64,000 nucleotides of DNA from Parcubacteria group bacterium (GCA_943354045.1 CALRBF010000002.1:60726-124725), one strand, 5' to 3'; positions 6,414 to 46,200 are shown, numbered from the stretch's first letter. The notes: generated by a model not told the origin, from the sequence alone. Numbers and translations: made by a program.

Positions 6414-6487
6414 GATAAAATGTACTTATATAGTATATCAAAGACTTATTATATATTCTATATATTATATCAATAATAGTTATCCAC

Positions 6488-8353: not shown

Positions 8354-8357
8354 TACC

Positions 8358-8783: not shown

Positions 8784-8931
8784 ATATTTTATTTATCTTT
8801 ATATATAGTATATAGGAGTACCCCTTATCATACAAGTTATATATTCATTTATACTTATCCTCAATTTAATATTTGAAAAAATACATAAAATTATTTATAA
8901 TAGATAAGTCCACCCTATCCCCCTCCTTCCA

Positions 8932-9252: not shown

Positions 9253-9262
9253 AGCCAAATCC

Positions 9263-9289
9263 AAGAGGAGCCCCGTTCCTCTTTTTTCC
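9263..9289 (+). terminator. Intrinsic terminator after HNH gene
   Basis: aagagga-gccccgt-tcctctt stem followed by a T-run. Confidence 0.6.
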
Positions 9290-9315
9290 CCAATATATAT
9301 TATATTTGTTACAAA

Positions 9316-9344
9316 TTGACAAATATAATATATCCATATATACT
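9316..9344 (+). promoter_or_regulatory. Near-consensus sigma70-type promoter (TTGACA-17-TATACT) with no ORF downstream
   Basis: TTGACA at 9316-9321, 17-nt spacer, TATACT at 9339-9344. The nearest strong downstream signal is the terminator at 9453-9488. Confidence 0.45.
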
Positions 9345-9350
9345 AGACTT

Positions 9351-9488
9351 GATGAGACTGGGTTCATCAATCCCCACACGGAGTTATTATTAACTTCGCT
9401 ACAGCCTGAGAAATCAGGCAAGTTGATAAAACTCCCATCCCCAGACTTATGCCCCACTGTGTGATAGCAGTGGGTGCTTTTCTTTTTT
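9351..9488 (+). ncRNA. Candidate small RNA (~135 nt) of unknown family, bracketed by promoter and terminator
   Basis: Contains the internal GNRA hairpin CCUGA-GAAA-UCAGG. It ends in the cccactg-N8-cagtggg stem plus a U-run (9453-9488). Only a 13-codon ORF lies inside. Confidence 0.35.
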
Positions 9489-10104
9489 AAGACAAGATTT
9501 TTATTTCTTTTAAAATAATATCTACTCCGTCTTCAACGGTAAGAGTATCGGTATCAATTTCAATCGCATCATCAGCTTTTTTGAGAGGAGAATGTTCTCT
9601 CTCAATATCTTGACGGTCACGCTCAGCAATTGAGTATTTAATATGCTCCAAATCTGCCTCTATGCCGGCTTTTTGTAATTGGCTATATCTTCGCTGAGCG
9701 CGTATATCGAGAGAGGCTGTAAAATAAAATTTATAGTCTGCTTCGGGGAATACCACTGTTCCAATATCTCGCCCCTCCACTACAATATCTTTTCCCTTTG
9801 CAAATTCACGCTGAATATTTAAAACCTTATCTCTAATTTCTGGTATCTTTGCAATTGTAGCTACATTATCTGAGACATCTTGATTTTTTAGCACACTATA
9901 ATCAATAGTATTATAATCTAAATCTTCAGCTAATGTTATCAAAACATCTGAGTCTCTAAGATTTAGATGTTGATTTAGAGCATTATACGTAATCCATCGA
10001 TACAAAGAGCCAGAATTGAGATGATAATATCCTAATCGTTTTGCCAGTGACTGAGCGGTACTGGTCTTTCCTGTTCCTCCTGTCCCGTCGATTGTGATAA
10101 TCAT
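9487..10104 (-). CDS. cmk: Cytidylate kinase
   Basis: MIITIDGTGGTGKTSTAQSLAKRLGYYHLNSGSLYR P-loop and CMP-binding pattern. Confidence 0.9.
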   Translation of the reverse strand: MIITIDGTGGTGKTSTAQSLAKRLGYYHLNSGSLYRWITYNALNQHLNLRDSDVLITLAEDLDYNTIDYSVLKNQDVSDNVATIAKIPEIRDKVLNIQREFAKGKDIVVEGRDIGTVVFPEADYKFYFTASLDIRAQRRYSQLQKAGIEADLEHIKYSIAERDRQDIEREHSPLKKADDAIEIDTDTLTVEDGVDIILKEIKILS

Positions 10105-14761: not shown

Positions 14762-14847
14762 CGGAGAGTAAGAGATTCGAACTCTTGATACCTTTCGGTA
14801 TACACGCTTTCCAAGCGTGCGCACTAGACCAACTATGCGAACTCTCC
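14762..14847 (-). tRNA. tRNA-Ser (anticodon GGA), class II with long variable arm; CCA not encoded
   Basis: Manual fold. Acceptor GGAGAGT/ACTCTCC 7 bp, D-stem GCA/TGC. Anticodon stem CACGC/GCGTG with loop TTGGAAA. Variable arm ATACC-GAAA-GGTAT. T-arm AAGAG-TTCGAAT-CTCTT, discriminator G. Confidence 0.85.
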
Positions 14848-15189: not shown

Positions 15190-15306
15190 TATAGTAAAAA
15201 AAATCTCCTCTTTTTATTTAGCAATCTATTATTCTGTTTGCTAGAAACCTATATCTCGTATATACTGAGTACAGTAACTCTATTTAGTAATCAATTATCT
15301 ATCGAT

Positions 15307-18021
15307 ATGGATACATCCAATAAACCAGATGCATTAACAAAAATTGCCTTATTCTTCCTGAATAAATGGCGAATTACTGTTCTTTTATTAGTAGGTATTC
15401 TTGCAATTGGAACTGCGGCTTATACTACATTCCTCAAGCGTGAGGGTTTTCCCACTATTGAGATACCTGTTGCTCTTATTCAAACCCCCTATTTTGTCAA
15501 TGACAAGGGGCTTGTAGAGAAGGATATTACTCAGCCAATTGAATCAGCTATTGGAAGCATACAAGAGGTTAAAACGGTAACTTCTACTACTGCTGATAAT
15601 TTTTCTAATATTACGGTTGAATTTAAAGAAGGTACAACTTCTAAGGCTGGGGCAAAATTATTAGAAGATGCGGTGAATGGAATTAATTTACCAAAGGATA
15701 CAAAATCTTCTTTTGTCACTATTAATGCGGCTTCTTTTGATGGAGAGAATGATTTGGTATTTAGCTTAATTGGAAATGGGAAATCTACTCAAGAATTGCA
15801 AGATAAAGCAACTTTTGTTGCAAAGGAGATAGATGCAGTTAATTCAGTTACTCGAACAAATGTAATTGATTTACAAGAAGTTCAAACTAATCCTATTACC
15901 GGTGAATCTAATTTAGAGCAAATTAAATTTGGACGCTCAGCTCATCGTGCTGATGATAAATTAGTATTCTCTGATGCTATTCTGATTGGAGCTGTACGAG
16001 ATACTTCTACCGGAACTATTGAATTCTCACAGGCTATTCAAGACAAAGTTCAAAAGCTCAAAGATGCTGGAGACTTAGATGGATATGATGTGATATTTGG
16101 TGGTGGAGATGCTTCTAATTCACTAAAGGCTCAATTAACTCTGCTTCAAGAAAGTGCTATATCTGGGCTTATTGCAGTGATGATTATTTTGCTTCTGGTG
16201 GTCAATTGGAGAGCTTCTATTGTTATTGCGGTATTTATCCCTGTCTCTATTGCACTTACATCTCTTGGTTTATATTTGATTGGATATTCTCTTAATACTC
16301 TTACTTTATTTGGTCTTATTCTGGTTATTGGATTAATCGCAGATGATGCGATTCTGGTGATTGATGCTATTGATAATGCCCGTAAAGCGGGACACCGAGG
16401 TAAAAAGGCGGTAATTCATGCAATTAATACTGTTGGGCTGGCAGATATATCTGGAACTGTTACTACCATTCTTGCCTTCATTCCTATTGCTCTTGTATCT
16501 GGTACTTTAGGAGAATTCATTAAGCTTATTCCTATTACGGTTATTTTAACCTTGGCTTTATCTCTGATTGTCAGTCTTACTCTCATTCCTTTCTTTGCAA
16601 ACTTGGTATTACCTCATTATGAGGCTGAGACAGGAGTAAAAGTAAAGCGCAAAGGTATTAGTAAAGCATTGTATAATGTTCTCTATTTTGTTCCTGGTAT
16701 TATTGATTGGATTAATACTAAGGTATATCAGTATACTAATTGGTATCTTAATAATATATGGCGTAGTACTATAATATTTGTATTAACAATTGCTCTTATT
16801 GGTGGAGGACTATTCACTGCTAGCAAGCTCAAATTTGCTATTTTTGCCCCAGCTAAAGACACTAATGAGATTACTGTTACCTCTATATTAAAGGATAATC
16901 GTGATCTTCAGAAATCTATTGATACCACTAAGGAAATTGAGAAAATCATAAAGGATACCAATGCTGATTATATTGATGATATTACCTACTTTAATGCAGA
17001 TGCATCTGGTGTATTGATGTATATTACTCTTACACCTCTTGGGGAGCGAGAAAAAACTTCAGCTACTATTGTATCCGAGATTAATGATAAGATTGCCGAT
17101 AATGTAAAGCTCAAAGATTTGAAAGTCAAAGCAGGTATAGCTGGAGCTGGGCCTCCAACCGATGATTATCAGATTACTTTCCAAGTATTCTCCGACAATC
17201 AAAAAAATCTTGAGAACTCAACCAAAGAAATTAGAGACTTTATCAAAGATATCAAATTAGATGGTGGTGAAATCAAAGATGTCATTATCAATAATATTGA
17301 TACTATTACTCAAAAAGATGGACGACGCTATGCATCGGTACAGGTTGCTGTGTCTGACCCAGAGAATACCAATCTTGTATTAGAAGCACAAACCGCTATC
17401 AAGGATAAATTTGATACTGATGAATTCCGTTCTAAGTATAATTTAGCTAAAGATGGTGTTGCATTTGATTTAGGACAACAAGGAGAAAATCTTGACTCCT
17501 TCCAATCAGCGATATTTGCTCTTATTGCGGCTATTATCATTATGTATGTGCTCTTGGTATTACAATTCAATTCCTTGAGTCAACCTTTCCTCATCCTGAT
17601 GGCAGTACCATTCTCATTCCCTGGATTATTCTTTGGACTTTATTTGACCAATAATCCTTTGAGCTTCTTTGCCTTAATTGGTATTACGGGGCTAGTCGGT
17701 ATTGTAGTTAATAATACTATCCTCTTACTTGATTACTCAAATGCCGTCTTAGCAGAAACGGGATCTGTTCGGGAATCAATTTCTGGAGCAATCAAATATC
17801 GTTTCCGAGCTTTGATTACTACTTCTCTCTCAACTATTGTAGGAATACTTCCTCTCGCCTTTGCAGACCCATTCTGGGAAGGACTTGCCTATGCATTGGT
17901 ATTCGGACTTGCATCTAGTACCCTATTGGTAATATTTGCCTATCCGGTATTCTATGTTGCCTTGGCTCATACTCGACGATTTGTCTGGAGAAAAATATTC
18001 CGTAAAAAAGACTTTAATTAA
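15307..18021 (+). CDS. RND-superfamily efflux/exporter permease (AcrB/MMPL-like, 12 TM with two large periplasmic loops)
   Basis: TM5-6 region IADDAILVIDAIDNARKAGH...ADISGTVTTILAFIPIA matches the RND consensus. The ORF track uses TTG at 15238; the ATG at 15307 (MDTSNKPD...) is preferred. Confidence 0.8.
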   Translation: MDTSNKPDALTKIALFFLNKWRITVLLLVGILAIGTAAYTTFLKREGFPTIEIPVALIQTPYFVNDKGLVEKDITQPIESAIGSIQEVKTVTSTTADNFSNITVEFKEGTTSKAGAKLLEDAVNGINLPKDTKSSFVTINAASFDGENDLVFSLIGNGKSTQELQDKATFVAKEIDAVNSVTRTNVIDLQEVQTNPITGESNLEQIKFGRSAHRADDKLVFSDAILIGAVRDTSTGTIEFSQAIQDKVQKLKDAGDLDGYDVIFGGGDASNSLKAQLTLLQESAISGLIAVMIILLLVVNWRASIVIAVFIPVSIALTSLGLYLIGYSLNTLTLFGLILVIGLIADDAILVIDAIDNARKAGHRGKKAVIHAINTVGLADISGTVTTILAFIPIALVSGTLGEFIKLIPITVILTLALSLIVSLTLIPFFANLVLPHYEAETGVKVKRKGISKALYNVLYFVPGIIDWINTKVYQYTNWYLNNIWRSTIIFVLTIALIGGGLFTASKLKFAIFAPAKDTNEITVTSILKDNRDLQKSIDTTKEIEKIIKDTNADYIDDITYFNADASGVLMYITLTPLGEREKTSATIVSEINDKIADNVKLKDLKVKAGIAGAGPPTDDYQITFQVFSDNQKNLENSTKEIRDFIKDIKLDGGEIKDVIINNIDTITQKDGRRYASVQVAVSDPENTNLVLEAQTAIKDKFDTDEFRSKYNLAKDGVAFDLGQQGENLDSFQSAIFALIAAIIIMYVLLVLQFNSLSQPFLILMAVPFSFPGLFFGLYLTNNPLSFFALIGITGLVGIVVNNTILLLDYSNAVLAETGSVRESISGAIKYRFRALITTSLSTIVGILPLAFADPFWEGLAYALVFGLASSTLLVIFAYPVFYVALAHTRRFVWRKIFRKKDFN

Positions 18022-21919: not shown

Positions 21920-23068
21920 ATGCACATTCACAAACTCATGGCCACTCAAAATGTTCTAACAAGACTGAAGTCCATCTCTGGGCTGTCACTCCGAAGCATC
22001 TTGATATTCTGTTTCTTTGGCTCCACCGTATTCATCACTATCTTAATGGTCTTCTTGATCAAAAGCGTAGGTGGTAATTTCCTTGAAGTACTAATAACTT
22101 TTCTGGTCACACCCATTGCATGGATAGCACTATTAGCACGTAGATTCATAGGGCTGGACCAGACCAATGGTTCACAAGGTGCTATTCTAGAATTTCTTGG
22201 GAAACAACCAGATCCCGCAAAATATGAGTTAAGACTAATACCCATACCCAGTGGTAAATTCAGAAGAGAACTCCCTCTGGATGGTTTTTGGGAAGGATTA
22301 TTAAGGCCGCGTGTCGTACAAGGATGGTATATATACATAAAAGGATTACATACAAGAGCCTGTTTAATTGATATTACTCAAAGGACAATAGAGTATACAA
22401 CCCCCAAAGATGGTTTGATTGATATACCAGAGGAAAGAGGTGGGGGATCTATTGCGATAAAGAAAGCTATAATACCATATTGGGTAACAAATCCGGTCAA
22501 GGCATTCTACAATGTTCTTGCATCAGAAAGTGATAAAGATCCCAATAAAGCTGGAGAACCTGTAAATGGGTATATATTTGAGTTAGAAAATTACATTAGG
22601 ATATCAATTGCGAAAGCAGTCTCGCTGAGTGACCTCGAATTAGATGAGTTATTAACGAGGGCTCATGCACTTGGTCCAGACATAACAAAAATATTAAGGG
22701 AAAAATTGGAAGAAAATGATATTGGAGTAGGTATTGGAACAGTAGACTCTCCTGATGCAACCCCCTCTGATAAATATCTTGATGATAGGGAACTAACTGC
22801 AAGTAGAAGAAAAGAGGAAGAAGCTAGACTAGTTGAATATGAGGCCCTACAAAAAAGGATATTCCTCTTGATGGGATTAGATGAACATGGTCAGAGAGAT
22901 CCAAATAGAGTCCCTGATAATGCAACGATGACTCTAGATCAAATTCTACAAGATAGATATGTGATGCAGATAGCAGAAAAAGCAGGTCCCATCTCAATTA
23001 ATTCCCTAGGAGGAAATTTTAATGACATTGTAAAAGGAATAATGACTAATATCCCGCCACAAACATAA
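21920..23068 (+). CDS. Hypothetical membrane-anchored protein (382 aa), higher-GC islet
   Basis: N-terminal TM helices then a soluble domain. GC about 42%. No family recognised. Confidence 0.45.
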   Translation: MHIHKLMATQNVLTRLKSISGLSLRSILIFCFFGSTVFITILMVFLIKSVGGNFLEVLITFLVTPIAWIALLARRFIGLDQTNGSQGAILEFLGKQPDPAKYELRLIPIPSGKFRRELPLDGFWEGLLRPRVVQGWYIYIKGLHTRACLIDITQRTIEYTTPKDGLIDIPEERGGGSIAIKKAIIPYWVTNPVKAFYNVLASESDKDPNKAGEPVNGYIFELENYIRISIAKAVSLSDLELDELLTRAHALGPDITKILREKLEENDIGVGIGTVDSPDATPSDKYLDDRELTASRRKEEEARLVEYEALQKRIFLLMGLDEHGQRDPNRVPDNATMTLDQILQDRYVMQIAEKAGPISINSLGGNFNDIVKGIMTNIPPQT

Positions 23069-23159: not shown

Positions 23160-23957
23160 ATGCTAATGTCTGAGAGACCCTCATTGGAGAAATCCATGTC
23201 TTTAGCAAGTGTTATCATTTCTGCTCTGATCATTTTCATCGTCCTCATGGCATTTTCTTTCTCAAAGAATCTACCAGCGAATATCAGAAATTCATCAGGT
23301 GGAGCTTCCACCCCTCCAAGCCCTTCTTCGGCACCATCCTCCTCCCCTGCTCCGGCAAGTGGTGGGAGTGGATGGCATATCCCAAGTTGGCTAGGACCTC
23401 TATTCTTGACCATAGCTGGACTATGGTTGATTCTAAAAGTCTTAGCCTTCAAGGGTGCTCCTGACAATTTGGAAGCGGTTCTTGCTGTTATCATAGCATT
23501 AGCTGGAGCAATTCTGCTCAAAGATGGGAAGAGATTTGCTGGATTCTTTCTTTCAGGCCTCATTATTGTACTGGTACTATTCCCAGGGATAATGACCTGG
23601 CTTCAAGGAGTTCGCCAATCTCAGATTAACCCCCCAGGGGAAATGGCTCCCATCGTTATCAATCGCGATGGTGAGTACGATCTCCCAGCACGCCCCCTCA
23701 AGGTATGCTTTACACGAACCGGAGATACAGCTAATCTCCTGGTGAATAAGGTTGATATCGCAGGAGTTATCTATGAGCAAAGTGAAGAAGGTTGTAAAGA
23801 TATTTCAGCAAAAGGGAAAGTATTTATATCCCTTTTATCAGGAAAACCCTACTCGGAACAAGTTAAGTCTCAGATTGGGATGACGGATGTGGATAATAAT
23901 TATGAGTATTACAAAAAAATAGGTTTTGGAGACTATCCCATAATAAAAGCTCGTTGA
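23160..23957 (+). CDS. Hypothetical membrane protein with Ser/Pro-rich linker (265 aa), highest-GC segment of window (~47%)
   Basis: TM-SGGASTPPSPSSAPSSSPAPASGG-TM-TM topology. The antisense ORF 23138-23563 was judged spurious. Confidence 0.45.
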   Translation: MLMSERPSLEKSMSLASVIISALIIFIVLMAFSFSKNLPANIRNSSGGASTPPSPSSAPSSSPAPASGGSGWHIPSWLGPLFLTIAGLWLILKVLAFKGAPDNLEAVLAVIIALAGAILLKDGKRFAGFFLSGLIIVLVLFPGIMTWLQGVRQSQINPPGEMAPIVINRDGEYDLPARPLKVCFTRTGDTANLLVNKVDIAGVIYEQSEEGCKDISAKGKVFISLLSGKPYSEQVKSQIGMTDVDNNYEYYKKIGFGDYPIIKAR

Positions 23958-24017: not shown

Positions 24018-24773
24018 TTATACTAAGGCTGAGATAATATATTGGGTTATTAGGAAAGCCCCCATAATTATCATAAGTCCCACAACTGCATTCCTAATTC
24101 CATCCAAGGCCTGACCTACTTCTCCTGGATTAGAACTTGTCATATATTTAAATCCTGACATAACTAGAATAGCCACAGTAATAGTTCCTAATATTCCTAA
24201 CAGAGCATTAATAATACCCGCTATAAGGTCTGGGATACTATTGAACTTAATAGGATTAGTGAATCCTACACTTTGTGGAGCTGATGCATCAGATGTGTTA
24301 CCCCCGGAACCATTTGGAACTGTAGCAGAACCATCAGGAGCTCCTCCTCCATTTGGAACTGTAGTAGATCCATCGGGTGCTGTAGCTACTCCAGGATTTC
24401 CTGGTGGTTTTTTACTAATGTCACATCTCATAGGGTTACCTGTACTACCCACACTACAAGTTCCTAATTGTCCTCCTGACTTACAGGCATCTCCTGATTT
24501 ATAACAATCCTCCCAACCATTTGCGGTAGTATTACAGTACAGGGTATCACCCCCTGTAGCTCCTCTTCTATCACAAAACCCATTTGCAGTAGATGTTTGT
24601 ACAGGCCCCCCTGGTGCTGTAGGGGTTTTTGACTGATAAGTACAGGTAGCTCCATTTGATTTACCAGAACAAGCCGTATTTTGTGCCGCTGTATTATCTA
24701 CGGTCTGAGCAAAGCTATTCTGAGGGATAATTATTCCTATACCTAATAAAAGTGAAAAGATAATATATTTCAT
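24018..24773 (-). CDS. Type IV secretion system pilin-like protein (VirB2/TrbC-like, PF18895 style) with Cys-rich N-terminal ectodomain
   Basis: Signal peptide. Eleven Cys in the mature N-terminal part, then a Gly/Pro-rich linker. C-terminal pilin module IPDLIAGIINALLGILGTITVAILVMSGFKYMTSSNPGEVGQ..AVVGLMIIMGAFLITQYI: hydrophobic helix, G.xYxTSxxNP, hydrophobic helix. Confidence 0.65.
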   Translation of the reverse strand: MKYIIFSLLLGIGIIIPQNSFAQTVDNTAAQNTACSGKSNGATCTYQSKTPTAPGGPVQTSTANGFCDRRGATGGDTLYCNTTANGWEDCYKSGDACKSGGQLGTCSVGSTGNPMRCDISKKPPGNPGVATAPDGSTTVPNGGGAPDGSATVPNGSGGNTSDASAPQSVGFTNPIKFNSIPDLIAGIINALLGILGTITVAILVMSGFKYMTSSNPGEVGQALDGIRNAVVGLMIIMGAFLITQYIISALV

Positions 24774-24774
24774 A

Positions 24775-25188
24775 CTAATTTACATTTAATGGGATATTAA
24801 TACTAGCGGTTTCATCTGGAGGGAATACAAATCCTAATACGGCATTGGATGCGACAAAGGCAAAGAATATAATAAGTAGACCTATGATTGCATTTACCAT
24901 TCTTTTTTGAGCTGATTCAGCCTGCTTCTCATCTCCTCCTGCGGTTGCATATTCAAATCCTGCATATAGGAATATAATAAATATCACAATTCCAATAAAT
25001 CCTAATATCCACCTGATAATAATCGATACTGTCTCTATGAGGCTTGGTCCCTCAGCTATTCCAGTATTAATTGGGATTGTCCCAGGATCAGGGAGAGTAG
25101 CATCAGGGGCTCTCTGAGCTAAGGAAATATTAGAGCCCAATAAAAATCCTCCCATTAATAAAGCTATTATAATCAATAAGACTCTCAT
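24775..25188 (-). CDS. T4SS pilin-like protein (short paralog)
   Basis: Signal peptide plus IIRWILGFIGIVIFIIFLYAGFEYATAGGDEKQAESAQKRMVNAIIGLLIIFFAFVASNAVLGFVF. Confidence 0.65.
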   Translation of the reverse strand: MRVLLIIIALLMGGFLLGSNISLAQRAPDATLPDPGTIPINTGIAEGPSLIETVSIIIRWILGFIGIVIFIIFLYAGFEYATAGGDEKQAESAQKRMVNAIIGLLIIFFAFVASNAVLGFVFPPDETASINIPLNVN

Positions 25189-25282
25189 ATCTATTTTACT
25201 ATTCTATATATTACAAGTATATCAAGTATTCTATTATCTGACAAGAATACTATATTATTTGAATATGTATTCTCTAAACAAT

Positions 25283-25305
25283 AAAAAGGGATATAATCCC
25301 TTTTT
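25283..25305. terminator. Perfect palindromic hairpin aaaaagggat-ata-atccctttttt inside the pilin gene array (bidirectional intrinsic terminator)
   Basis: 10-bp stem flanked by A5/T5+ runs. Sits in the 144-nt gap after the 25333-25716 pilin. Confidence 0.6.
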
Positions 25306-25332
25306 ATTGTTTCATAGTATCTATCAATTTGA

Positions 25333-25716
25333 TTAATTTCCTGGGAATACGAATGACAATATTGCATTTGAAGCTACAAAGGCAAAGAATATAATAATAA
25401 GTCCAATTACAGCGTTAATCATTCGAGACTGTGCAGTTTTTGCTTTTCCTTCATCTCCACCAGCTGTTGCATATTCAAATCCTGCAAATAAGAAAATAAT
25501 GAATATTACGATTCCGATAAATCCTAATGCCCATTGAATAACTACTTGTACTGTAGCCACAAGGTCAGTAGATTGATAAGTACCAGCTACTTGAGGTATT
25601 TCACCTATAACTCTAGTATCTTTTACGGGAGTTGCAGCTCCAGCTAAAGTAGGTGCTAATAATAATACTGGTAATAATACTCTTGTTACTATTGATTTTA
25701 TCTTGGAGGTATTCAT
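25333..25716 (-). CDS. T4SS pilin-like protein (short paralog; likely the major expressed copy given the downstream terminator)
   Basis: C-terminal module about 80% identical to 24775-25188; the N-terminal mature region is divergent. Start MNTSKIKSIVTRVLLPVLLLAPTLAGAA chosen at 25716 (ORF-track 25767 adds 17 implausible residues). Confidence 0.6.
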   Translation of the reverse strand: MNTSKIKSIVTRVLLPVLLLAPTLAGAATPVKDTRVIGEIPQVAGTYQSTDLVATVQVVIQWALGFIGIVIFIIFLFAGFEYATAGGDEGKAKTAQSRMINAVIGLIIIFFAFVASNAILSFVFPGN

Positions 25717-25815
25717 AAGAATATCTATAATTATTAAATAATATGTCCTATAAGTACATATTATCATATAATATATACTTATGCAAGTAATAGCATTGTG
25801 GATAAGTATATTATA

Positions 25816-26154
25816 TTATAAGCCAAAGACAAATCCCAAGACTGCATTAGATACCACAAAGGCCAATCCTACGATAAAAACCCCTATTACTGCTGCTGTA
25901 ATTCTACTTATAGCTTCTTCGGTTTTTTTAGGATCTCCTCCTGCTGTTGCATATTGAAATCCTGAAAAGAGTATGAGAATAAATAATATTACCCCTATTA
26001 ACCCTAGGCTCCATCTTACAATAGTAGATACAAAGGTAAATATATCCCCTTGTTCTGTCACCCCAGTACCAGTAGGAATACCTAAAACGGGTGGCACAGA
26101 TTCCTGAGCTTTTGCTGTTGCTATGATAAAATTAGCTATAAGTTTTTCTAACAT
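25816..26154 (-). CDS. T4SS pilin-like protein (short paralog)
   Basis: IVRWSLGLIGVILFILILFSGFQYATAGGDPKKTEEAISRITAAVIGVFIVGLAFVVSNAVLGFVF. Start at 26154 (MLEKLIANFIIATAKAQ) avoids a 77-nt overlap with the upstream gene. Confidence 0.6.
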   Translation of the reverse strand: MLEKLIANFIIATAKAQESVPPVLGIPTGTGVTEQGDIFTFVSTIVRWSLGLIGVILFILILFSGFQYATAGGDPKKTEEAISRITAAVIGVFIVGLAFVVSNAVLGFVFGL

Positions 26155-26164
26155 ATATACGATA

Positions 26165-26812
26165 TTAAGACCCTGCTGCGAGCAAACCACTTGTGACAAA
26201 ATTAGTGATAAGGAATGCGCCCATGATAATAAGTAATCCAATCACGGCATTGGTAATAGCTCCTGTAGCAGCGGCTGTTTGACTAGCATTTCCAGAGGAT
26301 ATCATATAGAGATACCCTTGTAAAACTATGATTATAAAAAATACTGTTCCTAAAATTCCTAGTATCCAGCGTATAATATTAGCCACATATCCAATAAGTG
26401 TTCCCCCCGTATTAAGTCCTGATCCAGCATTTTTGAATTGATTCAAACCCTGGGATAGTCCAGTTGATCCACCACTTGTAGATGTTTCAGTTGGAGAATT
26501 TGGTTTCGTTGGGGTTTGTTTAGTATCTGTTGCAGGCTGTAATGTATTGGCTTTAGGTGCACATACAATTTCTGTTGCTTGATTCTGAATACATGCTTGT
26601 CCAGAACCACACTTAATAGAAGCATCTCCTGTACAAATACCCTTACTATCTGCTTGATTTGTTAAACATTTTGTAGCACCATCTACTGTTACACATACTT
26701 TTCCCGAGGTACAATCTAGTCCAGATCCACAGGCTGCTAAAGCATTATAGGTATTCCCCATAAATCCTATTACAAACAGAATTACTAAACTTGTTGATAA
26801 AATACATTTCAT
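26165..26812 (-). CDS. T4SS pilin-like protein with Cys-rich N-terminal ectodomain
   Basis: Signal peptide. Fourteen Cys (CGSGLDCTSGKVCVTVDGATKC...). Thr/Pro linker. Pilin module IIRWILGILGTVFFIIIVLQGYLYMISSGNASQ...AVIGLLIIMGAFLITNFV. Confidence 0.65.
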   Translation of the reverse strand: MKCILSTSLVILFVIGFMGNTYNALAACGSGLDCTSGKVCVTVDGATKCLTNQADSKGICTGDASIKCGSGQACIQNQATEIVCAPKANTLQPATDTKQTPTKPNSPTETSTSGGSTGLSQGLNQFKNAGSGLNTGGTLIGYVANIIRWILGILGTVFFIIIVLQGYLYMISSGNASQTAAATGAITNAVIGLLIIMGAFLITNFVTSGLLAAGS

Positions 26813-26842
26813 AATATCTATATTTAATTATTTTTAATTATA

Positions 26843-27949
26843 TCATCTTTTTCTTAATTTCCAAATAAATAATCCTAGTCCCCCAGCAAGAAATAGTATT
26901 CCTCCTATCAAAATAGCTATATTTCCGAATGTTTTAGATTTTGCTGGCTGTGTAGTTGTATTCGTATCAGGGGTAGGAGTATTGGTGGAGAGTAACACTG
27001 TTCCCTGCTCTTTTTTTGATAAATTATAAGTGGAGATTTGATTATTTTGATTAATCAATAGTTCATTTCCAGATTGTCCAATCGAATATATATCAGTAAC
27101 TATTGGATTTAATGATATATTTGATTGCTCCTGCCCTTGCAAATTATATTGTATCAAATTACCATTTGTAGTTAATACAGCTATCGTATCATTATTCAGT
27201 AATACAGCTTTCCTGTTACTCATATTAATACTACTTCCTACTTGATTACTACTCCAATCGAAAACTTTTATCTGACTATTATTATATTCCAAAAAATAAT
27301 TTAATTTTGGACTGGTTGAAATTTGATAATTACTACTTTTTTGGTATACAAAGTTTTTCTTATTACCAACAAGATACCCATCAACTAATGGGATTATTTG
27401 ATGGTCTTCATTTGCTATAATTTGTTTATTAATATCCACATTAGATGGTATATTAGAGTATAGAATATTAAATTTAGACAGATCATTGGTGGGAGCAACT
27501 GTGATATCTTTATTATTAAATACATATATAATTTCATTATCAGAATACCAGCCAACTAAATTAGTTTTATCATTTAGTTGTATTTTATTTTTTGTATTAA
27601 AATCATATACCCACCATTGATTATCGGGAGATTTTCTTGAACTATCAAAAAATGGTGCTTGATATTTTGGAAATGATATATTGGGAGGATAAAGTAACAT
27701 TTTAGATTGTTCAGGAGAAATTGATACTAAGTTAGTAGCAGAAGGTATTAAATCAAATATCTCTGACTTATCACCAGTAATAACATTTTGTTTCACAATA
27801 GCCCCTGCATATTGATCAAAATATAAAATTTCATTATTTACAGCAAAACTTGGATATAGGAAACTTGAGTATATACTGGTATCCGCATATACTGGAGAAA
27901 TAGAATAGAAAGATGCTATTAGTAAAAATAGACTTAAGATTTTATTCAT
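26843..27949 (-). CDS. Secreted N/Q/S-rich beta-propeller-like surface protein with C-terminal Thr/Pro stalk, TM anchor and KLRKR tail
   Basis: Signal peptide MNKILSLFLLIASFYSISPVYA (start 27949 preferred over 28042). Repeated aromatic-rich beta-strand segments. C-terminus TPTPDTNTTTQPAKSKTFGNIAILIGGILFLAGGLGLFIWKLRKR resembles a tripartite sorting signal but lacks LPXTG. Confidence 0.5.
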   Translation of the reverse strand: MNKILSLFLLIASFYSISPVYADTSIYSSFLYPSFAVNNEILYFDQYAGAIVKQNVITGDKSEIFDLIPSATNLVSISPEQSKMLLYPPNISFPKYQAPFFDSSRKSPDNQWWVYDFNTKNKIQLNDKTNLVGWYSDNEIIYVFNNKDITVAPTNDLSKFNILYSNIPSNVDINKQIIANEDHQIIPLVDGYLVGNKKNFVYQKSSNYQISTSPKLNYFLEYNNSQIKVFDWSSNQVGSSINMSNRKAVLLNNDTIAVLTTNGNLIQYNLQGQEQSNISLNPIVTDIYSIGQSGNELLINQNNQISTYNLSKKEQGTVLLSTNTPTPDTNTTTQPAKSKTFGNIAILIGGILFLAGGLGLFIWKLRKR

Positions 27950-27953
27950 ATTG

Positions 27954-29357
27954 TTATTTACATGTTTTAAATTTTTGATAGTTACTCCACACTCCATCAC
28001 AATAATTTCCTCCACAAGCTGATGAACCTGAACATGCCCCACAATAATCTCCTGCTACACAATCAGAACAAGCTCTGGACGAAAAATCTGAATATCCATT
28101 ACATTGACTAGAACATTTATTATATCGTTTTAAATGTTTCCCCATACATACAAGGGCATCTCTTCGATTTGTTCTACTTCCACTACATCCCAGCTCATTC
28201 CAGCTCGTTTGTAAAAATTGACCTGCTCCAGCTGCTCCAGATCCATTTTCATTTGGACAAGCATTAGGATTATTAAATGCTGCAGGACATTCTCTTTGCA
28301 TAATTCCAGCTAATAGTTCAGAAGGAACACCAGTCTGTAAACTAGCATTATTTAGATCAGCCTTAACCGAATCATTTAAACTTGCACAACTTATAGTTGA
28401 GGAGTTACTCCCTCCATTACCGAGCACACCTGATCCACCTCCATTTCCCCCATTATCATTAAAAGTGCTTGCAGTGTCACATTTTACCTCGAATACTTTA
28501 CCGGGTTGAAAAGTAAGTACCGCTGAGAAATTTTGTTCTTGGAAGCCAAGTCCTACTAATAAGAAACTGAATAGGAGAAAACTTGCCATTACGAGCAATA
28601 ATCCAATCACTGCATTGGTAATAATGCCATACCCCGTACTCACTCCCCCGGGATTACCAGCTGAAGTAAGTATATATACTCCACCAATTACAATACTTAA
28701 TACTGCTAGTGAAGCTAGTAGGCCCAAAGCAAAATTAAAGATGTCTCGAATTAAGATAAATATATCACAAATAGTACAATCTCTACTGGTACCACATTTA
28801 ACAAGTCCTGTTTCTGAATTGGTTGAGCTTCCGTTAGTTGTTCCAGCACCAGCATCACCTTCTCCAGGAATATTAGAACCAGTTGCACCCCCAGAGGTCC
28901 CAGCTTGGCTGCCTCCACCAGCATTAGATCCAGATGGTGAATTAGTGGTACCACCAATAGTTGCATTTTCTTTTATACATTTAAAATCACTACATTTAAG
29001 ACCTGCTACACATTCATTTCCATTCCCAGAACAAGATTGCCCCTCTGTTTTATTGCCTCTTGGACTGGAACAAACCTGATTAATACAGGCTAATCCATTT
29101 TGACAAGTATCACCTGAGCAGGATGATCCTAAGCTAGTACGACAAGTTAATCCTAAACCTGGATTATTTTTATCTTTCACTTGGCATTTTCCATTTAAAC
29201 GAGAAATCCCATTTTGAAATGTACAATTTTGCTCTAATGCTGTTGCCCCAGCACTACAGGATCCATCAGCTGTCTGAGCATAAGTAGATTTAATACTAAA
29301 AAATGAAGCTATTAGGAAGATTATACTAAAGACTATACCAAACTTTATATATTTCAT
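27954..29357 (-). CDS. Composite protein: Cys-rich ectodomain + T4SS pilin module + lytic transglycosylase (SLT/VirB1-like) domain + Cys-rich tail
   Basis: Signal peptide. Cys-rich EGF-like N-terminal region. Pilin module ICDIFILIRDIFNFALGLLASLAVLSIVIGGVYILTSAGNPGG...AVIGLLLVMASFLLFSFLL. Then ELLAGIMQRECPAAF...GAAGAGQFLQTSW, which resembles SLT-family E..S / GLMQ / AxGxMQ motifs. The C-terminal 80 aa hold about 14 Cys. Confidence 0.55.
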   Translation of the reverse strand: MKYIKFGIVFSIIFLIASFFSIKSTYAQTADGSCSAGATALEQNCTFQNGISRLNGKCQVKDKNNPGLGLTCRTSLGSSCSGDTCQNGLACINQVCSSPRGNKTEGQSCSGNGNECVAGLKCSDFKCIKENATIGGTTNSPSGSNAGGGSQAGTSGGATGSNIPGEGDAGAGTTNGSSTNSETGLVKCGTSRDCTICDIFILIRDIFNFALGLLASLAVLSIVIGGVYILTSAGNPGGVSTGYGIITNAVIGLLLVMASFLLFSFLLVGLGFQEQNFSAVLTFQPGKVFEVKCDTASTFNDNGGNGGGSGVLGNGGSNSSTISCASLNDSVKADLNNASLQTGVPSELLAGIMQRECPAAFNNPNACPNENGSGAAGAGQFLQTSWNELGCSGSRTNRRDALVCMGKHLKRYNKCSSQCNGYSDFSSRACSDCVAGDYCGACSGSSACGGNYCDGVWSNYQKFKTCK

Positions 29358-30700
29358 TTTTTTACATTATCAGCTAATGTTTGTATTTCTGATTCAGCCT
29401 GAGTGATAGCCTTACTATAGTCCAGTAGTCCTGAATTAACTGCATTAATAGCCTCAATAAATATTTTATCTACTGAATTATTATCTGGTTGTCTCCAAGT
29501 TTTGGCTTGTAAAATTTGTTTTACAAATACGCCATAATCACTATCTTGAGATTGAGTTTCTACCAAATCTCTTCTAGCTGTTGGGCGCTTGGTTTTCAAG
29601 AAATACTCTTGAGCATTTTCTTTTTCAGTAGCTGATTTGAGGAATGCAAAAGATTCTTTAGGATATTTGGATTGACCGCTGACTCCATATCCCCAATAAT
29701 TTGCATAGTTAGCAAGTCCAGAATCTAGTGATACTTGAGGAAGAGGTGCTACCGCAAAATTAAGTCTTGGAGCTTTTGCTTTAATTGCTTCTATTTGATA
29801 AGAATATCCAAATATCATAGCTACTTCCCTCTCATAAAAAGCATCTATTGAATTATTGAGAGTTGAATTCCATGTATATACTGATTTTCGAGGATTAGCA
29901 AAATCAGTATAATAGGTTAAAGCTAATGTTCCTGGAGAGATATTTTGTCCATTGATATTTTTTCCTTGTGAGAATGTAATTCTACTAGAATCTTTTGGAT
30001 CAGTAAATTGAGCACCTGTTTGTAACATTAATGACATTAATATATCAGGGGAACGATTTATATTATCCCCAGTACCAAGTGCAACCCCTGCCTGTTTAAT
30101 ATTACCAAATTGATCAATTTTAGTTAATTCTGGGACAATTTTTTGTAATTCTTCCCAAGTTGCTGGTGGATTTGCAATTCCGGCATCATTAAATGCATCT
30201 TTATTATATAATAATGCTAAGGTATCGGTATATAGGGGAAATCCATATATTTTACCCCCGTCAATAAAGTCTTGATTGACCACATCTACAAAACGATCTT
30301 GATAATCTTTAAGCGTCATAATTTCTTCTGGCATTGAAGCTAATTTATTCTTATGCTTCCCGAGCCAAGTATGTTCTATTGCAAATATATCTGGTCCTCG
30401 TCCCTCAGCTAAAGCATTCACTAATTCTGTTTCATAATCTTGTGGCTTGAATTTACGATATTCTATACTTACATTAGGATATGTTTTACGAAAATCACTT
30501 CCTAATTTTGTCATTGTCTCACTTTCATCCCATACGCCCCATACTACCAGATTAGCTTTTTGTACTTGTTTTCTACCTCCAGCTTGGAACCCAAGAGCAT
30601 TCCCTAACATCAAAATAACAATGGCCAATATAGCCACTCCAGCAATAATAATTAATTTACGATTTTTGGTAAATGAATCAAGAGAATTATTCCCTGCCAT
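29354..30700 (-). CDS. ABC-type extracellular solute-binding protein (family 1, sugar-type), membrane-anchored, with no cognate permease/ATPase genes nearby
   Basis: N-terminal TM anchor then an SBP_bac_1-like fold (GPDIFAIEHTWLG, GFPLYTDTLALLYNKDAF, ATWEEL). The stop overlaps the start of the pilin-SLT gene by 4 nt. Confidence 0.7.
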   Translation of the reverse strand: MAGNNSLDSFTKNRKLIIIAGVAILAIVILMLGNALGFQAGGRKQVQKANLVVWGVWDESETMTKLGSDFRKTYPNVSIEYRKFKPQDYETELVNALAEGRGPDIFAIEHTWLGKHKNKLASMPEEIMTLKDYQDRFVDVVNQDFIDGGKIYGFPLYTDTLALLYNKDAFNDAGIANPPATWEELQKIVPELTKIDQFGNIKQAGVALGTGDNINRSPDILMSLMLQTGAQFTDPKDSSRITFSQGKNINGQNISPGTLALTYYTDFANPRKSVYTWNSTLNNSIDAFYEREVAMIFGYSYQIEAIKAKAPRLNFAVAPLPQVSLDSGLANYANYWGYGVSGQSKYPKESFAFLKSATEKENAQEYFLKTKRPTARRDLVETQSQDSDYGVFVKQILQAKTWRQPDNNSVDKIFIEAINAVNSGLLDYSKAITQAESEIQTLADNVKK

Positions 30701-30702
30701 AT

Positions 30703-31245
30703 TTATGATTTTTTAAATATATACCCATAATGATATTTACCTGCATCAATTTTATGATCAATTTCAAAACCATTATTTTGTATCAGAGAAACTAATTCTC
30801 TCTCTGGAATTCTTGATGATTTGAGAGGTCCTATTGGGCTTGCTATATCCCATTCTATTATGACCAATTTCCCTTTTTCTTTTAATATTTTATAAGCTTC
30901 TTTGAGCAAATGTTTTTTATCATTTACTTGAAAAAGGATATTATGTATCATAACTCTATCTACTGATTCTTTTGGTAAAGTAGAACCACTATCAGTCTCG
31001 AGATTAGTCAAAATCAATTCAATATTGGTAATACCTTGAATTTTGTATTTACTTCTGAGAGACTGATGTGCTGATTCCATTACATCAATTGCAAATACTT
31101 TCCCTGTTGGCTGAATATATTGAGCAATAGCAATAGAAAAGTCTCCAGCCCCCGATCCAAAATCAGCAATTTTCATTCCAATTTCTAAGTCAAATTGCTT
31201 TACTATTTCACGCGGTGATAGAAATCGAGTAGTGGTTTCTAACAT
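30703..31245 (-). CDS. Class I SAM-dependent methyltransferase
   Basis: Motif I IADFGSGAGDFSIAIAQ; acidic motif II FAIDVMES; motif III VDRVMIHNILFQV. First gene of the pilin operon. Confidence 0.8.
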   Translation of the reverse strand: MLETTTRFLSPREIVKQFDLEIGMKIADFGSGAGDFSIAIAQYIQPTGKVFAIDVMESAHQSLRSKYKIQGITNIELILTNLETDSGSTLPKESVDRVMIHNILFQVNDKKHLLKEAYKILKEKGKLVIIEWDIASPIGPLKSSRIPERELVSLIQNNGFEIDHKIDAGKYHYGYIFKKS

Positions 31246-31261
31246 AATGAGATTTTATTTT

Positions 31262-31302
31262 ATACCTATATCAAGTATATAGGTATTCCTTTAAATCGTC
31301 AA
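31262..31302 (-). promoter_or_regulatory. Minus-strand promoter (TTGACG-17-TATACT) overlapped by a perfect 10-bp inverted repeat ATACCTATAT-N5-ATATAGGTAT (candidate operator) upstream of the methyltransferase-pilin operon
   Basis: -35 = revcomp of 31297-31302; -10 = revcomp of 31274-31279; palindrome 31262-31286 spans the -10 and TSS; start codon at 31245. Confidence 0.45.
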
Positions 31303-31374
31303 CTATCTGTATGGGTTCAAGGATATTATCTCTCTTGGGGGGGATAGACTTCAAGTTCATATTTTATCCACCCC

Positions 31375-31430
31375 GTCTCCCGCCTAAACAAAGTATAGGA
31401 GGGAGACACCCCTCAAGAGGGGAATTTTTT
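31375..31430 (+). repeat. GC-rich double hairpin (GTCTCCC-N19-GGGAGAC, then CCCCT-caag-AGGGG + AATTTTTT) oriented as a plus-strand terminator in a minus-strand gene region
   Basis: The first hairpin loop ccgcctaaacaaagtataggaggga is nearly identical to 18198-18225. Member of the same repeat family. Confidence 0.5.
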
Positions 31431-31469
31431 GTACAGTACATTTTTATATATTCCCTTTCACTAATACTA

Positions 31470-43284: not shown

Positions 43285-46200
43285 TTATTTGTTAAGTACT
43301 TGTCGCACAGCTTCTTTAATTCCTATCATTTTACTTGGCTGTAAGAATGTAGAAAGTGGCTGTAATCTAGTTCCACCATTTGGCAGTCTAATTTGATTCC
43401 AGAATCCAGATGTTGGAATATTCCTATTACCACTAAATTCCGCCCAGTTAAACTTTGATACAAATTCTTCTGGAGATTTGATATCCTTAAATCTTAGATA
43501 TTCTTTGAATAATTGAATATTCTGATTATTAATATCTGGATTATTTACAATTGCATCATAAAGCCACTGTTTACCTGCATCAGTTTGTACATAAGTATCT
43601 AATACCTGCTTACCTAAATTAGAGTCATAAGGCAAGTTCCCTAATTCATTAGCGATATATCTCTGTACTACACCTAAAGAGTTTGTTCCTTTAGTTAATT
43701 CCACCATATCTGGAGCATCTTCAAATCTAGCTAAAATAGTCTGATTCAAAACTTTTCTTAACTCATCAGAGTTTATGTTATTAACTACTTCAGACATTTG
43801 CTCTGGACTTAAGTTTGCAAATCCATTAGATAAAAATGTAGATCCTTCACCTGTATTGATTATAGAGTTATAGATTACTTCTCTTCCATAATCATCTGTA
43901 AAATATGATTGTATAATTTCTTTAGCTTGTAAATCTGTAAGATTTTGCTTACCTAATATTTCAGATAAATCTCTAGTAAATTCACTAGTTGCAACTGGTG
44001 GAACTTCTGGAGATGGAGTTGCTACTGGAGCTTCGGCTGCTGGTGGAACTATAGGCTCTGATCCTAAAGATTCAGTGCCTACTGGTGATGATGCTGGTGT
44101 TTCGGAATATACTGGATCAATAGTAGGAGCTTCTGCTGGAGATGGAGCAACATATTCTGCTGGTTGAAATGCCTCAAGATGATCTATGTTAAAATGACTA
44201 ATTCCCTCTAATTGACCTGGACCTAGATATCTTGAAACTTCATATAATTGCCCTTTTGAAAGGCTGGCCATTTCATTAGCATTATCTATTCCCCATTGAG
44301 CTAATAATCCTCTTCCCCCTTCGGTACCTTGCGCTAATTGAAACATCGTATTCTGACCTACTCCCGACTGCACATAATTTTCTAAGGCATGCTGTATTTG
44401 GTCTGGACTAGCATTTGGCCCTAATTGTTTAGCTATTTCTCCCCATAAAGTCTCACCTTTACTTAATTGAGATATATCTTGTAATTGTTCTGGGGATAGA
44501 TTTTGAGTAGCTGCTTTGGTAGCTTCAGTTGCAGCACCCGTACCTTCTGGAGTTGGAGAAATTGGTTCCACTTCAGGTTTTGAGGTAGCAGCAACTTGCT
44601 CTGGATTAAATACTCCTCCTGGTCGCATCATATCAACTGCTAATGAGGTCATAAGGCCTCCACCCACTGCTGTTCCTACTACATTGGCAATAGTTCTATT
44701 TCTTTGTTGCTTTTGTAATTCTGTAATACGTTTTTCTGATAAAGTAGTTAATAGTCTACTTGTATATTGTTGATTTTGTTCTGGAGAAGAGAATACAAAT
44801 TTCTCAGAAGCTCCTTGTATGGCGACTTCATTAGTAATATCTTCTGAGCTTATAATCTCATCTTTAGCTTTCAGGGTATTAGTTGAACTTGATTCTTGTT
44901 TTACTTGTTTTGCAATACTTTCACGCTGTACTCTACTACCCAACTCAGTTAATATAGCCTCATAAGCTGTTTGCTGTGATTCATTAGTAAATTTACCACC
45001 ATTAAGGCGATAATAGGCCTCAAGTGTACTAAGCTTTGTACTTAAATCAGCATCATTTGCATTATTAATATAATCATCTTTCAATGAATCTTCTACTAAT
45101 TTTGGTATAACTGCTTTAAATTTAATACCAAATCTGTTTATCTCTCCATCCTCCATCAGACCTACTAAAGTATTCCTTGAGCTAACTCCTGACATAACAC
45201 TTCCCAGAGATCTTCTTGTCATTTCTAAAGCTCCTGATACTGGTATCCCTGCTCCAGTCGAAGATAATAAAGCACCTGCAGCAAAAAGACCTATATTAGC
45301 TAACATCCATCGAGTTTTATTTTTAGTTGCCCAACCTAAGAACTTTTCTTTGGCACCATTAAACCTCTTCTCCCATTTACCTTGTAGCTCTTGGGACTGA
45401 TCTATCCTACTATCTCTCAAATTCTTAACCTCTTGTGTAAAGACTCTATGTATTTCTGACTCTAAACCTTGAGCTGCCATAATACCAATAACTTCCTCAA
45501 CTGTTTGATTATATTCTCCTCTTAGTCTTTCTAATTCTAATTTTGCACTCTCATCATTACGATTTCTATTATAAAATTCTTCAGCTCGGGCATAAGCTGT
45601 TCTCAAATCTGTGATATTAATTTTATATGATGAGTCTACATTTTTTTCAAAATCAGGTATTGATTTATATCCCACCGCCTCACTACCTGACAATGTAGAT
45701 AATGGGATGTTGGTATCATCTACAATAACTCCCTTTATAAATTCATTTTTACTAAGTGTACTGACAATAAAATCTGGAGTTTGTGGATTAAGTCCTGGCA
45801 ATACATAGCCTGTATAATGTAAGTCAGAATCTACTGCATCTAAATTAATATCTGTAAGTATATGAGCTGGTCGAGCTTTACCTATCAAATTTGCGACACT
45901 ATAAGTTCGATTTAATTCTATATTTTTACTATGATGTTTAATGGTAATAATATTTCCATTTTCATCAAATCCATATCCTTGTGCTTCTAGATAATCTTTT
46001 GTATTTTTTGCTTCTGGATGTGATAAATCTATATCTCTTTGTTGCGGAAGAGCAAAGATTTCTCCTCCCTTAATATGCGCAAGTTTATTCTGAGCTTCCC
46101 AAGCAGCTTGCTCAAATGCACGATATCTCTCATTTGTTGCCAGATCTCGAGTATGGAAAGGATGCTCTTGTGCAAATTGTTGATATGTAGCAATAGCTTG

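Follow-up and report, generated by a model that had tools for sequence, protein, structure and literature searches.

Six pilin-like proteins with a solute-binding protein and a methyltransferase in a conserved Paceibacteria gene module: the probable surface part of a type IV secretion system encoded elsewhere

Introduction

Members of the bacterial Candidate Phyla Radiation (CPR; Patescibacteria) carry tandem arrays of genes for VirB2-like pilins, of which 441 with 2-11 genes each have been counted in 383 assemblies; they are commonest in Microgenomatia and Saccharimonadia, and their paralogs share on average 25% and at most 54% identity (PMC12102498). In the same survey VirB2-like pilins were near virB4 in just 1135 of 1948 assemblies, virB4 was usually near dnaA in Paceibacteria, and the genes that encode type IV secretion systems (T4SSs) were commonly divided over several loci; most genomes with VirB2 had no VirB1, and VirB2 biogenesis there seems not to need it (PMC12102498). 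An essential six-pilin array is located inside the T4SS cluster of Southlakia epibionticum, so far the single species tested (PMC10633639, PMC12857230). The role of the T4SS and pilin arrays of Patescibacteria has been called completely unknown (PMC11665869). Here we analyze an array in a 64,000-nt stretch of DNA (hereafter the window) from a Parcubacteria group bacterium (GCA_943354045.1, CALRBF010000002.1:60726-124725), where positions 24,018 to 31,302 hold genes for six pilins behind genes for a methyltransferase (MT) and a solute-binding protein (SBP). The locus is probably the pilin and surface sub-locus of a CPR T4SS whose motor is encoded elsewhere.

Likenesses to the surveyed arrays are membership in PF18895, tandem divergent paralogs, sometimes a non-pilin gene between them and a position often away from virB4. 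The present array differs in being of Paceibacteria type, with pilin modules 23-68% identical pairwise, and in the order MT-SBP-array after gyrA, a pilin-muramidase fusion and the swapping of ectodomains, none of which is described in the survey (PMC12102498). That paper contains no occurrence of ‘solute’, ‘SBP’ or ‘gyrase’ and, judging from its statement on VirB1, missed the pilin-muramidase fusion; here a VirB1-like domain of predicted activity is fused to a pilin. We found no other paper in the searchable literature that cites PF18895/T4SS_pilin in this context. Our analysis followed up an original prediction made from the sequence of the window, which had implied that a pilin array free of secretion ATPases was new; such arrays had already been published (PMC12102498, PMC10633639, PMC12857230). 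What does appear to be undescribed in the searchable literature is the MT-SBP-array module, together with the fusion of a pilin to a muramidase and the exchange of cassettes, as set out below.

S. epibionticum ML1 (SEML1_0006-0019) likewise is a monoderm member of the CPR with six structurally similar, sequence-divergent VirB2-like pilins, and its T4SS has an associated lysozyme and peptidase; its array, however, lies within a cluster with VirB4, VirB6 and VirB3, the class is Saccharimonadia, and the array is not reported to have an SBP or MT as partner (PMC10633639). The VirB2/TrbC/TraA pilins of Gram-negative T4SSs (PF04956) share the signal peptide, two hydrophobic helices, short basic loop and (as predicted here) outside termini, whereas three of the window pilins have large ectodomains, the host has no outer membrane, and we saw no genes for cyclisation or acetylation (TraF, TraX). 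VirB1-type hydrolases (VirB1, PrgK of pCF10, TraG of pIP501) are also membrane-attached, exposed proteins of lytic-transglycosylase (LT) or lysozyme fold encoded with T4SS genes, but the enzyme-like domain in our array sits behind a pilin hairpin instead of a simple transmembrane (TM) anchor, is Cys-rich and is exchanged among relatives. The pilin-like protein of the Mbov_0395 family (NF045849), from integrative and conjugative elements (ICEs) of Mycoplasma, has the same two-helix module, in keeping with the MPF-FATA origin that has been reported for the T4SS of the CPR; it is encoded by a single gene on a mobile element, in contrast to the chromosomal array here. The T4SSs of Bartonella and Anaplasma again have several divergent pilins, VirB2 paralogs in tandem that may serve to vary the surface they expose, but these are diderm animal pathogens whose pilins lack fused enzymes as well as SBP or MT partners.

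Gene content and pilin family

Nine genes lie on the minus strand of region 24018-31245 in the order MT, SBP, pilA, X, pilB, pilC, pilD, pilE, pilF (Table 1). All nine open reading frames (ORFs) are present where the original prediction had placed them, and its observation as a whole was confirmed. The intergenic gaps, from MT to pilF, are 2, -4, 4, 30, 10, 99, 144 and 1 nt; most junctions thus agree with the 1-30 nt or overlaps claimed for the cluster, the exceptions being those of 99 and 144 nt.

Five of the six pilins (pilB-pilF, 31.4-44.1 bits) pass the gathering cut-off of PF18895 (T4SS_pilin, 26.6 bits). PilA is 0.6 bits short, and its homologues match PF18895 at E<0.01 in 21/21 cases, with a best value of 9e-13. 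A six-module hidden Markov model (HMM) run against the window ORFs recovered the same six ORFs only, the next match having E=0.012. In a hydropathy scan and on inspection, each of the six proteins has a hydrophobic, signal-like segment at the N-terminus and a C-terminal pair of hydrophobic helices, and the module alignment shows that the helices flank a short polar loop, G-x-x-Y-x-T/S-x-G-N/D. The proposed family, signal peptide and two-helix module have therefore held up, with pilA marginal by profile score. The TrbC/VirB2 profile, also named in the prediction as a check, gave the opposite result: against a PF04956 cut-off of 27.9 bits the window pilins reach 10.3-13.6 bits (E=0.08-0.85). PF04956 is matched by some pilins of related arrays (best 5.6e-9) and weakly by others. 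The NCBIfam model NF045849 (‘pilin-like conjugal transfer protein’ of Mycoplasma ICEs) matches at ~1e-9 and 35-36 bits, below its cut-off of 40. That the locus is a CPR pilin array with PF18895 membership is well supported, and we hold this with high confidence.

The modules form two groups, C/D/E and A/B/F, with pilD and pilE the closest in sequence (68% identity). The same division separates short ‘core’ pilins (pilC, pilD, pilE) from ‘decorated’ ones (pilA, pilB, pilF), whose termini bear disulfide-rich ectodomains. The N-ectodomains of pilA, pilB and pilF contain 12, 8 and 8 cysteines, respectively, and the C-domain of pilA 14; three disulfide-rich N-ectodomains had been foreseen, with 11-14 cysteines each. 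Hydropathy together with the established topology of VirB2/TraA leads us to predict a VirB2-like topology, with the termini, the Cys-rich domains and the LT domain outside and the basic loop inside.

Some proteins are ‘polypilins’ of 480-930 aa with up to 7 tandem PF18895 hairpin modules; one of them (P0205, positions 8001-9821 of locus L032) belongs to an array of eight genes that again follows MT and SBP. Pfam matches of pilins to TctB, DctQ, AgrB and Chromate_transp are far below the cut-offs and were discarded as hydrophobic noise. Two distant pilA-like loci, L023 and L024, were also examined; the latter, beside a PilB/PilC/PilM type IV pilus cluster, matches PF18895 at no better than E=6e-4, which we took as too weak for use.

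Conservation of the gene module

The closest genomes are metagenome-assembled genomes (MAGs) of Candidatus Paceibacteria/Parcubacteria, many of them derived from lakes. The order GyrA-MT-SBP-pilA-X-pilB-...-pilF is kept in 13 species-level genomes, in which the pilins are 1:1 positional orthologs and the array has a fixed position between gyrA and rpsL. SBP orthologs of 45-56% identity with different outer flanks, one of them in a Portnoybacteria MAG, are likewise preceded by MT and followed by 2-6 PF18895 genes, and a pilin chosen independently through a HMMER representative search led to the same gene arrangement. We then used the SBP to collect 80 metagenomic loci (39-70% identity), in which features were counted over those loci with enough sequence. 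A same-strand ORF with the pilin module is downstream of the SBP in 61/61 loci, mostly directly adjacent; MT is directly upstream of the SBP in 66/68 and GyrA is present in 51/58, so that MT is bound more tightly to the SBP than to gyrA. These arrays contain 2-6 pilins (median 3). The stop codon of the SBP gene overlaps the pilA start (ATGA) in the window and in 10 of 13 related genome loci; elsewhere the distance is usually below 100 nt and in a few cases up to 1.8 kb. The synteny comparison thus agrees with the proposal that MT, SBP and pilins form an undescribed unit.

The SBP is of carbohydrate (MalE-like) type, with matches to SBP_bac_1 (Table 1) and SBP_bac_8 (4.7e-28), weak matches to MalE, GanS and NgcE, and MalE-type matches in the PDB; it lacks cysteine and is anchored by an N-terminal TM segment (residues 16-34). 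Pfam scans took in 50 of the 59 window ORFs of at least 120 aa, all long ones included, and no ABC permease or ATPase for the SBP is among these 50; in the loci of relatives, pilin genes occupy that place. Since pilins follow in all loci counted and MT directly precedes in nearly all, the SBP is a dedicated partner of the pilin array and not an orphan transporter part. MT, matched by Methyltransf_31, has neither TM segment nor signal and is cytoplasmic; among PDB entries it is closest to 3dh0 (‘SAM dependent methyltransferase’, SAM being S-adenosylmethionine). Both identities had been predicted correctly.

MT and the SBP could instead be housekeeping genes of the gyrA neighbourhood that are functionally unrelated to the pilins and syntenic by accident. 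In close relatives gyrA, a metallo-beta-lactamase (MBL)-fold gene and GatB are indeed syntenic too, and MT is a generic class I enzyme. The linkage persists, however, where both outer flanks differ (L026, L029), and MT accompanies the SBP more faithfully than it does GyrA (66/68 against just 51/58). The SBP-pilA overlap and a conserved promoter that lies 5' of MT, after gyrA, also argue against coincidence, which we regard as highly improbable.

Within this conserved order the membrane cores and the exposed surfaces behave differently. Identity to the window across relatives is 78-100% for GyrA (88-100% except in the most distant locus, L019), 66-98% for MT, 62-95% for the SBP and 47-96% for the short pilins pilC, pilD and pilE, whereas the decorated pilins (pilA, pilB, pilF) and X match only partially. 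Across relatives whose GyrA stays 89-100% identical, the C-domain of pilA and the ectodomains of X, pilB and pilF are replaced; ortholog lengths range over 142-279 aa for pilB and 146-321 aa for pilF. X has a signal peptide and an ectodomain assigned by fold to the beta-propellers, together with a Thr/Pro stalk and a TM anchor at the C-terminus, whose last residues are KLRKR, in accord with the surface propeller protein predicted. Four lineages have a propeller as the ectodomain of X, and the others have a small domain with Cys instead. Exposed parts are exchanged like cassettes even between genomes with GyrA 98-100% identical, and locus L010, whose GyrA is 100% identical to that of the window, has another pilA C-domain and another X. 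Conserved membrane cores with swapped ectodomains are the pattern expected of host-contact proteins.

PilA and its C-terminal domain

PilA combines its pilin hairpin with large domains on both sides (Table 1). By fold search only, its C-domain has a lysozyme-like alpha-helical fold and is assigned to the family-1 LTs; a weak match to a PHROG ‘transglycosylase’ (E=0.003) points in the same direction. The LT-like fusion of the original prediction is thus borne out by fold. The motifs ‘IMQREC’ (with E356) and ‘GAAGAGQF’ are invariant in a 5-sequence alignment, and we take them to resemble ‘ARQES...GASGLMQI’ of Slt70; the residue-level match to the catalytic site is putative. Relatives carry a Pfam SLT/SLT_3 or a lambda-lysozyme-like domain in the same position, and some homologues have been named ‘muramidase (phage lysozyme)’ by JGI. 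Among close relatives there are at least 4 unrelated-looking C-terminal muramidase types: the Cys-rich LT of the window, the lambda-lysozyme-like type, Pfam SLT_3+SLT, and two forms with ‘IDEGEGC/IDTENADG’. HMMs of five muramidase types found the fusion in 1/80 distant loci, and Pfam searches of 29 long pilins from distant arrays found SLT in 4 and Ig-like domains in 6 (He_PIG Ig, fn3 and SLT being seen), showing that the fusion partner is variable and not universal.

The core of pilA homologues is nearly invariant (GLVKCGxSRDCTxCD, then the hairpin, then LGFQ...VKCD) and is much more conserved than in the other five pilins. Within residues 184-300 (28458-28808) it has invariant cysteines outside the hairpin, C188, C194 and C197 before TM1 and C293 after TM2, which suggests disulfides stapling the two extracellular stubs.

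Small two-TM proteins beside a muramidase domain could also be the remnant of a prophage lysis cassette (holin-like proteins plus an endolysin) or of a decayed ICE, and the JGI names, the weak PHROG transglycosylase match and the similarity to the Mycoplasma ICE pilin-like protein would be compatible with such an origin. We rejected the holin/prophage reading because the pilins match no PHROG family (0/6). Moreover, Pfam scans of the window contain no integrase, relaxase, terminase or capsid gene, the position between gyrA and rpsL is fixed across species, the G+C content equals that of the flanks, and the pilins have cleavable signal peptides and paralogs in 1:1 positional orthology. The probability that we assign to a prophage or ICE remnant is close to negligible.

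Genomic surroundings and the presumed link to T4SS

On one side the array is flanked by genes for GyrA, GatB, MetRS, GreA, PriA, Def, Fmt, RecJ, enolase, FtsK and DprA, and on the other by those for S12, S7, EF-G and an RND-type transporter; Lon, S2, EF-Ts, FtsW, MurD and MraY are encoded in the 10 kb past the right window end. FtsK has alpha, motor and gamma domains, as expected from the prediction that it is a chromosome translocase. Since G+C is uniform throughout the window, matching the flanks, and GC skew is monotonic, there is no sign of an island.

Several observations weigh against assigning the locus to a T4SS. None of the 50 scanned window ORFs encodes VirB4, VirD4, VirB6, VirB11, PilB/T or an ABC permease, and no T4SS core gene is found in the 10 kb beyond the right window end either, as the original prediction had held for nearby secretion and pilus ATPases; to the two sides of the array, at least 24 kb and 43 kb are free of T4SS core genes. 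T4SS genes are also missing within 7-10 kb in 10 distinct gene contexts (L001-L009, L025-L029 and L032, the loci covered by Pfam gene tables; the others were screened for the window's own proteins). Because no T4SS core gene is nearby, the link to T4SS rests on the family name and the literature. The pilin-module profile matched no solved structure among PDB sequences. For the pilA C-domain, the proposed check with SLT profiles (PF01464, PF18896) gave no Pfam match, hhalign against SLT_3-type relatives gave E=0.59, and phmmer and profile searches of PDB sequences returned nothing relevant (the best sequence match, to alkaline phosphatase, was discarded as noise). Large domains on both pilA termini and strict pairing with an SBP and MT are features of no characterised VirB2 pilus.

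The locus might thus encode a self-contained envelope apparatus without a T4SS motor, in which PF18895 hairpins serve as anchors or scaffolds that show adhesins and a muramidase, and the SBP captures host-wall glycans. Such an apparatus would account for the linkage of SBP to pilins (61/61) and of MT to SBP (66/68), the 10 contexts devoid of T4SS genes, an SBP with no permease partner in the window and the bulky domains at both ends of pilA, and polypilins with up to 7 hairpins fit a VirB2-type filament poorly. Yet the homologous array of S. epibionticum lies inside the T4SS cluster and is essential with it (PMC10633639), split T4SS loci are common (PMC12102498), and the module encodes no energy source or channel. 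We consider a T4SS-independent apparatus somewhat unlikely, and keep the sub-locus of a T4SS with a distant motor as the probable identity of the array.

If the locus is such a sub-locus, the pilins would be inserted by Sec, lose their signal peptides and reside in the membrane as helical hairpins, with the short basic loop on the inner face and both termini outside. Their extraction and polymerisation into a pilus or an envelope-spanning conduit would be the work of a VirB4-driven T4SS with its genes elsewhere, which the literature places near oriC for Paceibacteria. The short pilins would build the shaft, with the decorated pilins as minor subunits for attachment to the host cell and local cleavage of peptidoglycan; the membrane-anchored propeller protein and SBP would make the exposed set complete. 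Ectodomain swapping would be an adaptation to hosts, and the ligand of the SBP would most likely be a glycan, whether released or displayed at the host surface. Whether a distant VirB4 machine in fact makes a pilus with a shaft of short pilins and adhesive or lytic decorated subunits seems to us evenly balanced. The original prediction of a filament or adhesion module with machinery elsewhere agrees with published work on Patescibacteria, in which virB4 is frequently distant (PMC12102498); the filament itself is putative.

Table 1. Features of the pilin array and its surroundings, in window coordinates.
Feature	Coordinates	Strand	Details
MT, 180 aa class I SAM-dependent methyltransferase	30703..31245	-	Methyltransf_31 4.4e-15, Ubie_methyltran 9e-14
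SBP, 448 aa carbohydrate-type (MalE-like) solute-binding protein	29354..30700	-	SBP_bac_1 2.1e-31
pilA, 467 aa decorated pilin	27954..29357	-	PF18895 26.0 bits
pilA signal peptide	29277-29357	-	
pilA 12-Cys N-ectodomain	28809-29276	-	
pilA PF18895 two-helix module	28533-28808	-	
pilA conserved post-TM2 segment and Gly-rich linker	28410-28532	-	
pilA 14-Cys LT-fold domain	27957-28409	-	putative catalytic E356 in MQREC, then GAAGAGQF
X, 368 aa surface protein	26843..27949	-	start = M32 of longest ORF
pilB, 215 aa pilin, 8-Cys N-ectodomain, Thr/Pro-rich linker	26165..26812	-	PF18895 31.4 bits
pilC, 112 aa short pilin	25816..26154	-	PF18895 44.1 bits; TrbC E=0.08; NF045849 6.6e-9
pilD, 127 aa short pilin	25333..25716	-	PF18895 35.3 bits
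pilE, 137 aa short pilin	24775..25188	-	PF18895 33.6 bits; NF045849 2.7e-9
pilF, 251 aa pilin, 8-Cys N-ectodomain, Gly/Pro/Asn-rich linker	24018..24773	-	PF18895 38.2 bits
SPFH/Band_7-like membrane protein, 382 aa, convergent neighbour	21920-23068	+	
Four-TM protein, 265 aa, convergent neighbour	23160-23957	+	
Putative promoter of MT-SBP-pilA-X-pilB-pilC-pilD	31274..31302	-	-35 TTGACG (31302-31297), 17-nt spacer, -10 TATACT (31279-31274)
Imperfect inverted repeat	31251..31297	.	21-nt arms, 76% complementary, 5 nt apart
MITE-like insertion, 158 nt, between gyrA stop and MT promoter	31303..31460	-	G+C-rich hairpins
TTATCCACA (DnaA-box consensus) in pilC-pilD spacer	25797..25805	-	followed by promoter-like TTGCAT-17-TAATAT
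Intrinsic-terminator-like hairpin after pilD	25276..25312	-	17-bp stem, A- and U-tracts, dG -20.1 kcal/mol, z -5.4
Putative internal pilE-pilF promoter	25216..25244	-	TTGTCA-17-(TG)-TATACT, extended -10

Transcription signals and intergenic elements

A single operon had been proposed for the cluster. The 144-nt gap between pilD and pilE holds a conserved terminator hairpin and a promoter, and the cluster is therefore predicted to consist of two transcription units, with pilE-pilF separate from the rest. Hairpins with a T-tract and different stem sequences are found at the equal place downstream of pilD in relatives, where the pilE-pilF promoter is conserved as TTGT[CT]A/TTGATA-17-TGnTA[TC]A[AC]T. 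The hairpin in the spacer between pilF and the 265 aa four-TM gene was insignificant (z -1.7). In L015 (13686-14207) and L010 (13732-14137) the pilD-pilE spacer is enlarged to 400-520 nt by G+C-rich structured inserts, with the terminator and the pilE promoter retained at its two ends.

Both the promoter and the dyad predicted before MT are present. The promoter scores 10/12 in a consensus scan, and 11 relatives retain TTGAC[GT]-17-TATA[CA]T between gyrA and MT amid variable flanking bases. The inverted repeat has a perfect 8+8 core, ACCTATAT/ATATAGGT, that overlaps the -10 hexamer and may act as an operator; this perfect palindrome is specific to the window, relatives having only looser or different dyads there. 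Eleven relatives lack the 158-nt insertion that the window has upstream of the promoter. Another spacer of a related genome (pilD-pilE of L010, 13928-14022) holds a 96-nt copy with 90% identity, which suggests a small mobile repeat resembling a miniature inverted-repeat transposable element (MITE), and its 22-nt hairpin core recurs in L010, L014 and L018.

The TTATCCACA motif of the pilC-pilD spacer is conserved in 7/7 relatives examined. It occurs 6 times in the window (positions 6480, 23888, 25797, 32995, 55541 and 57327; 5/6 on the minus strand), where 0.87 copies are expected and 0/100 shuffles reach 6; the six copies form no oriC-like cluster. No Shine-Dalgarno-like GGAGG or purine run is present within 30 nt 5' of any of the nine starts, and the leaders are A+T-rich. 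The overlapping or 1-4 nt junctions suggest translational coupling or initiation independent of a Shine-Dalgarno sequence.

Neighbouring genes and other features

Convergent to the array are the genes of an SPFH-like and a four-TM membrane protein, possibly an SPFH-NfeD-type pair; the Band_7 match of the former is weak (Pfam, E=0.0014). Of the distant loci, L025, L028 and L032 have the pair in the same convergent orientation to the array and L026 and L029 do not, and its membership in the module is uncertain. Both neighbours diverge fast, with 24-44% identity where that of GyrA is ~90% or more.

A 927 aa AcrB/RND-type transporter (15238-18021, plus strand, 9e-92) is encoded in this presumed monoderm host with no obvious partner genes nearby. 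An acidic ORF of 1450 aa (43285-47637, minus strand), flanked by a DUF5663 gene and a sugar transferase, is matched by neither Pfam nor NCBIfam and shows no signal peptide or strong TM segment. Just two Rfam matches are present in the window, a class A RNase P RNA (49138-49462, minus strand, 142 bits) and a tRNA (14762-14847, minus strand).

Conclusions

A pilin array as such is unsurprising to a specialist in CPR bacteria or T4SSs; what the locus offers is a set of conserved, testable partner proteins. In this locus and roughly 100 related loci the SBP and MT are always with pilins, some pilins bear a predicted wall-cutting enzyme or Ig-like adhesin domains, and these parts are replaced like cassettes; the SBP/MT linkage, the enzyme- and adhesin-bearing pilins and the cassette replacement point to host-wall attack and host-range adaptation. 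If a canonical VirB4 locus accompanies the module in every case, the module would be one more split T4SS. It is a bolder and in our judgement unlikely idea that the MT-SBP-pilin module is a distinct, widely conserved apparatus of Paceibacteria, either free of VirB4 or the business end of a CPR T4SS, in which swappable adhesin and muramidase cassettes breach the host wall and the dedicated, permease-less SBP captures the glycan set free. Should this be true, it would provide a concrete, testable model of how these epibionts feed on their hosts, and the proteins named here have ligands and activities that are measurable in vitro without cultivating the organism.

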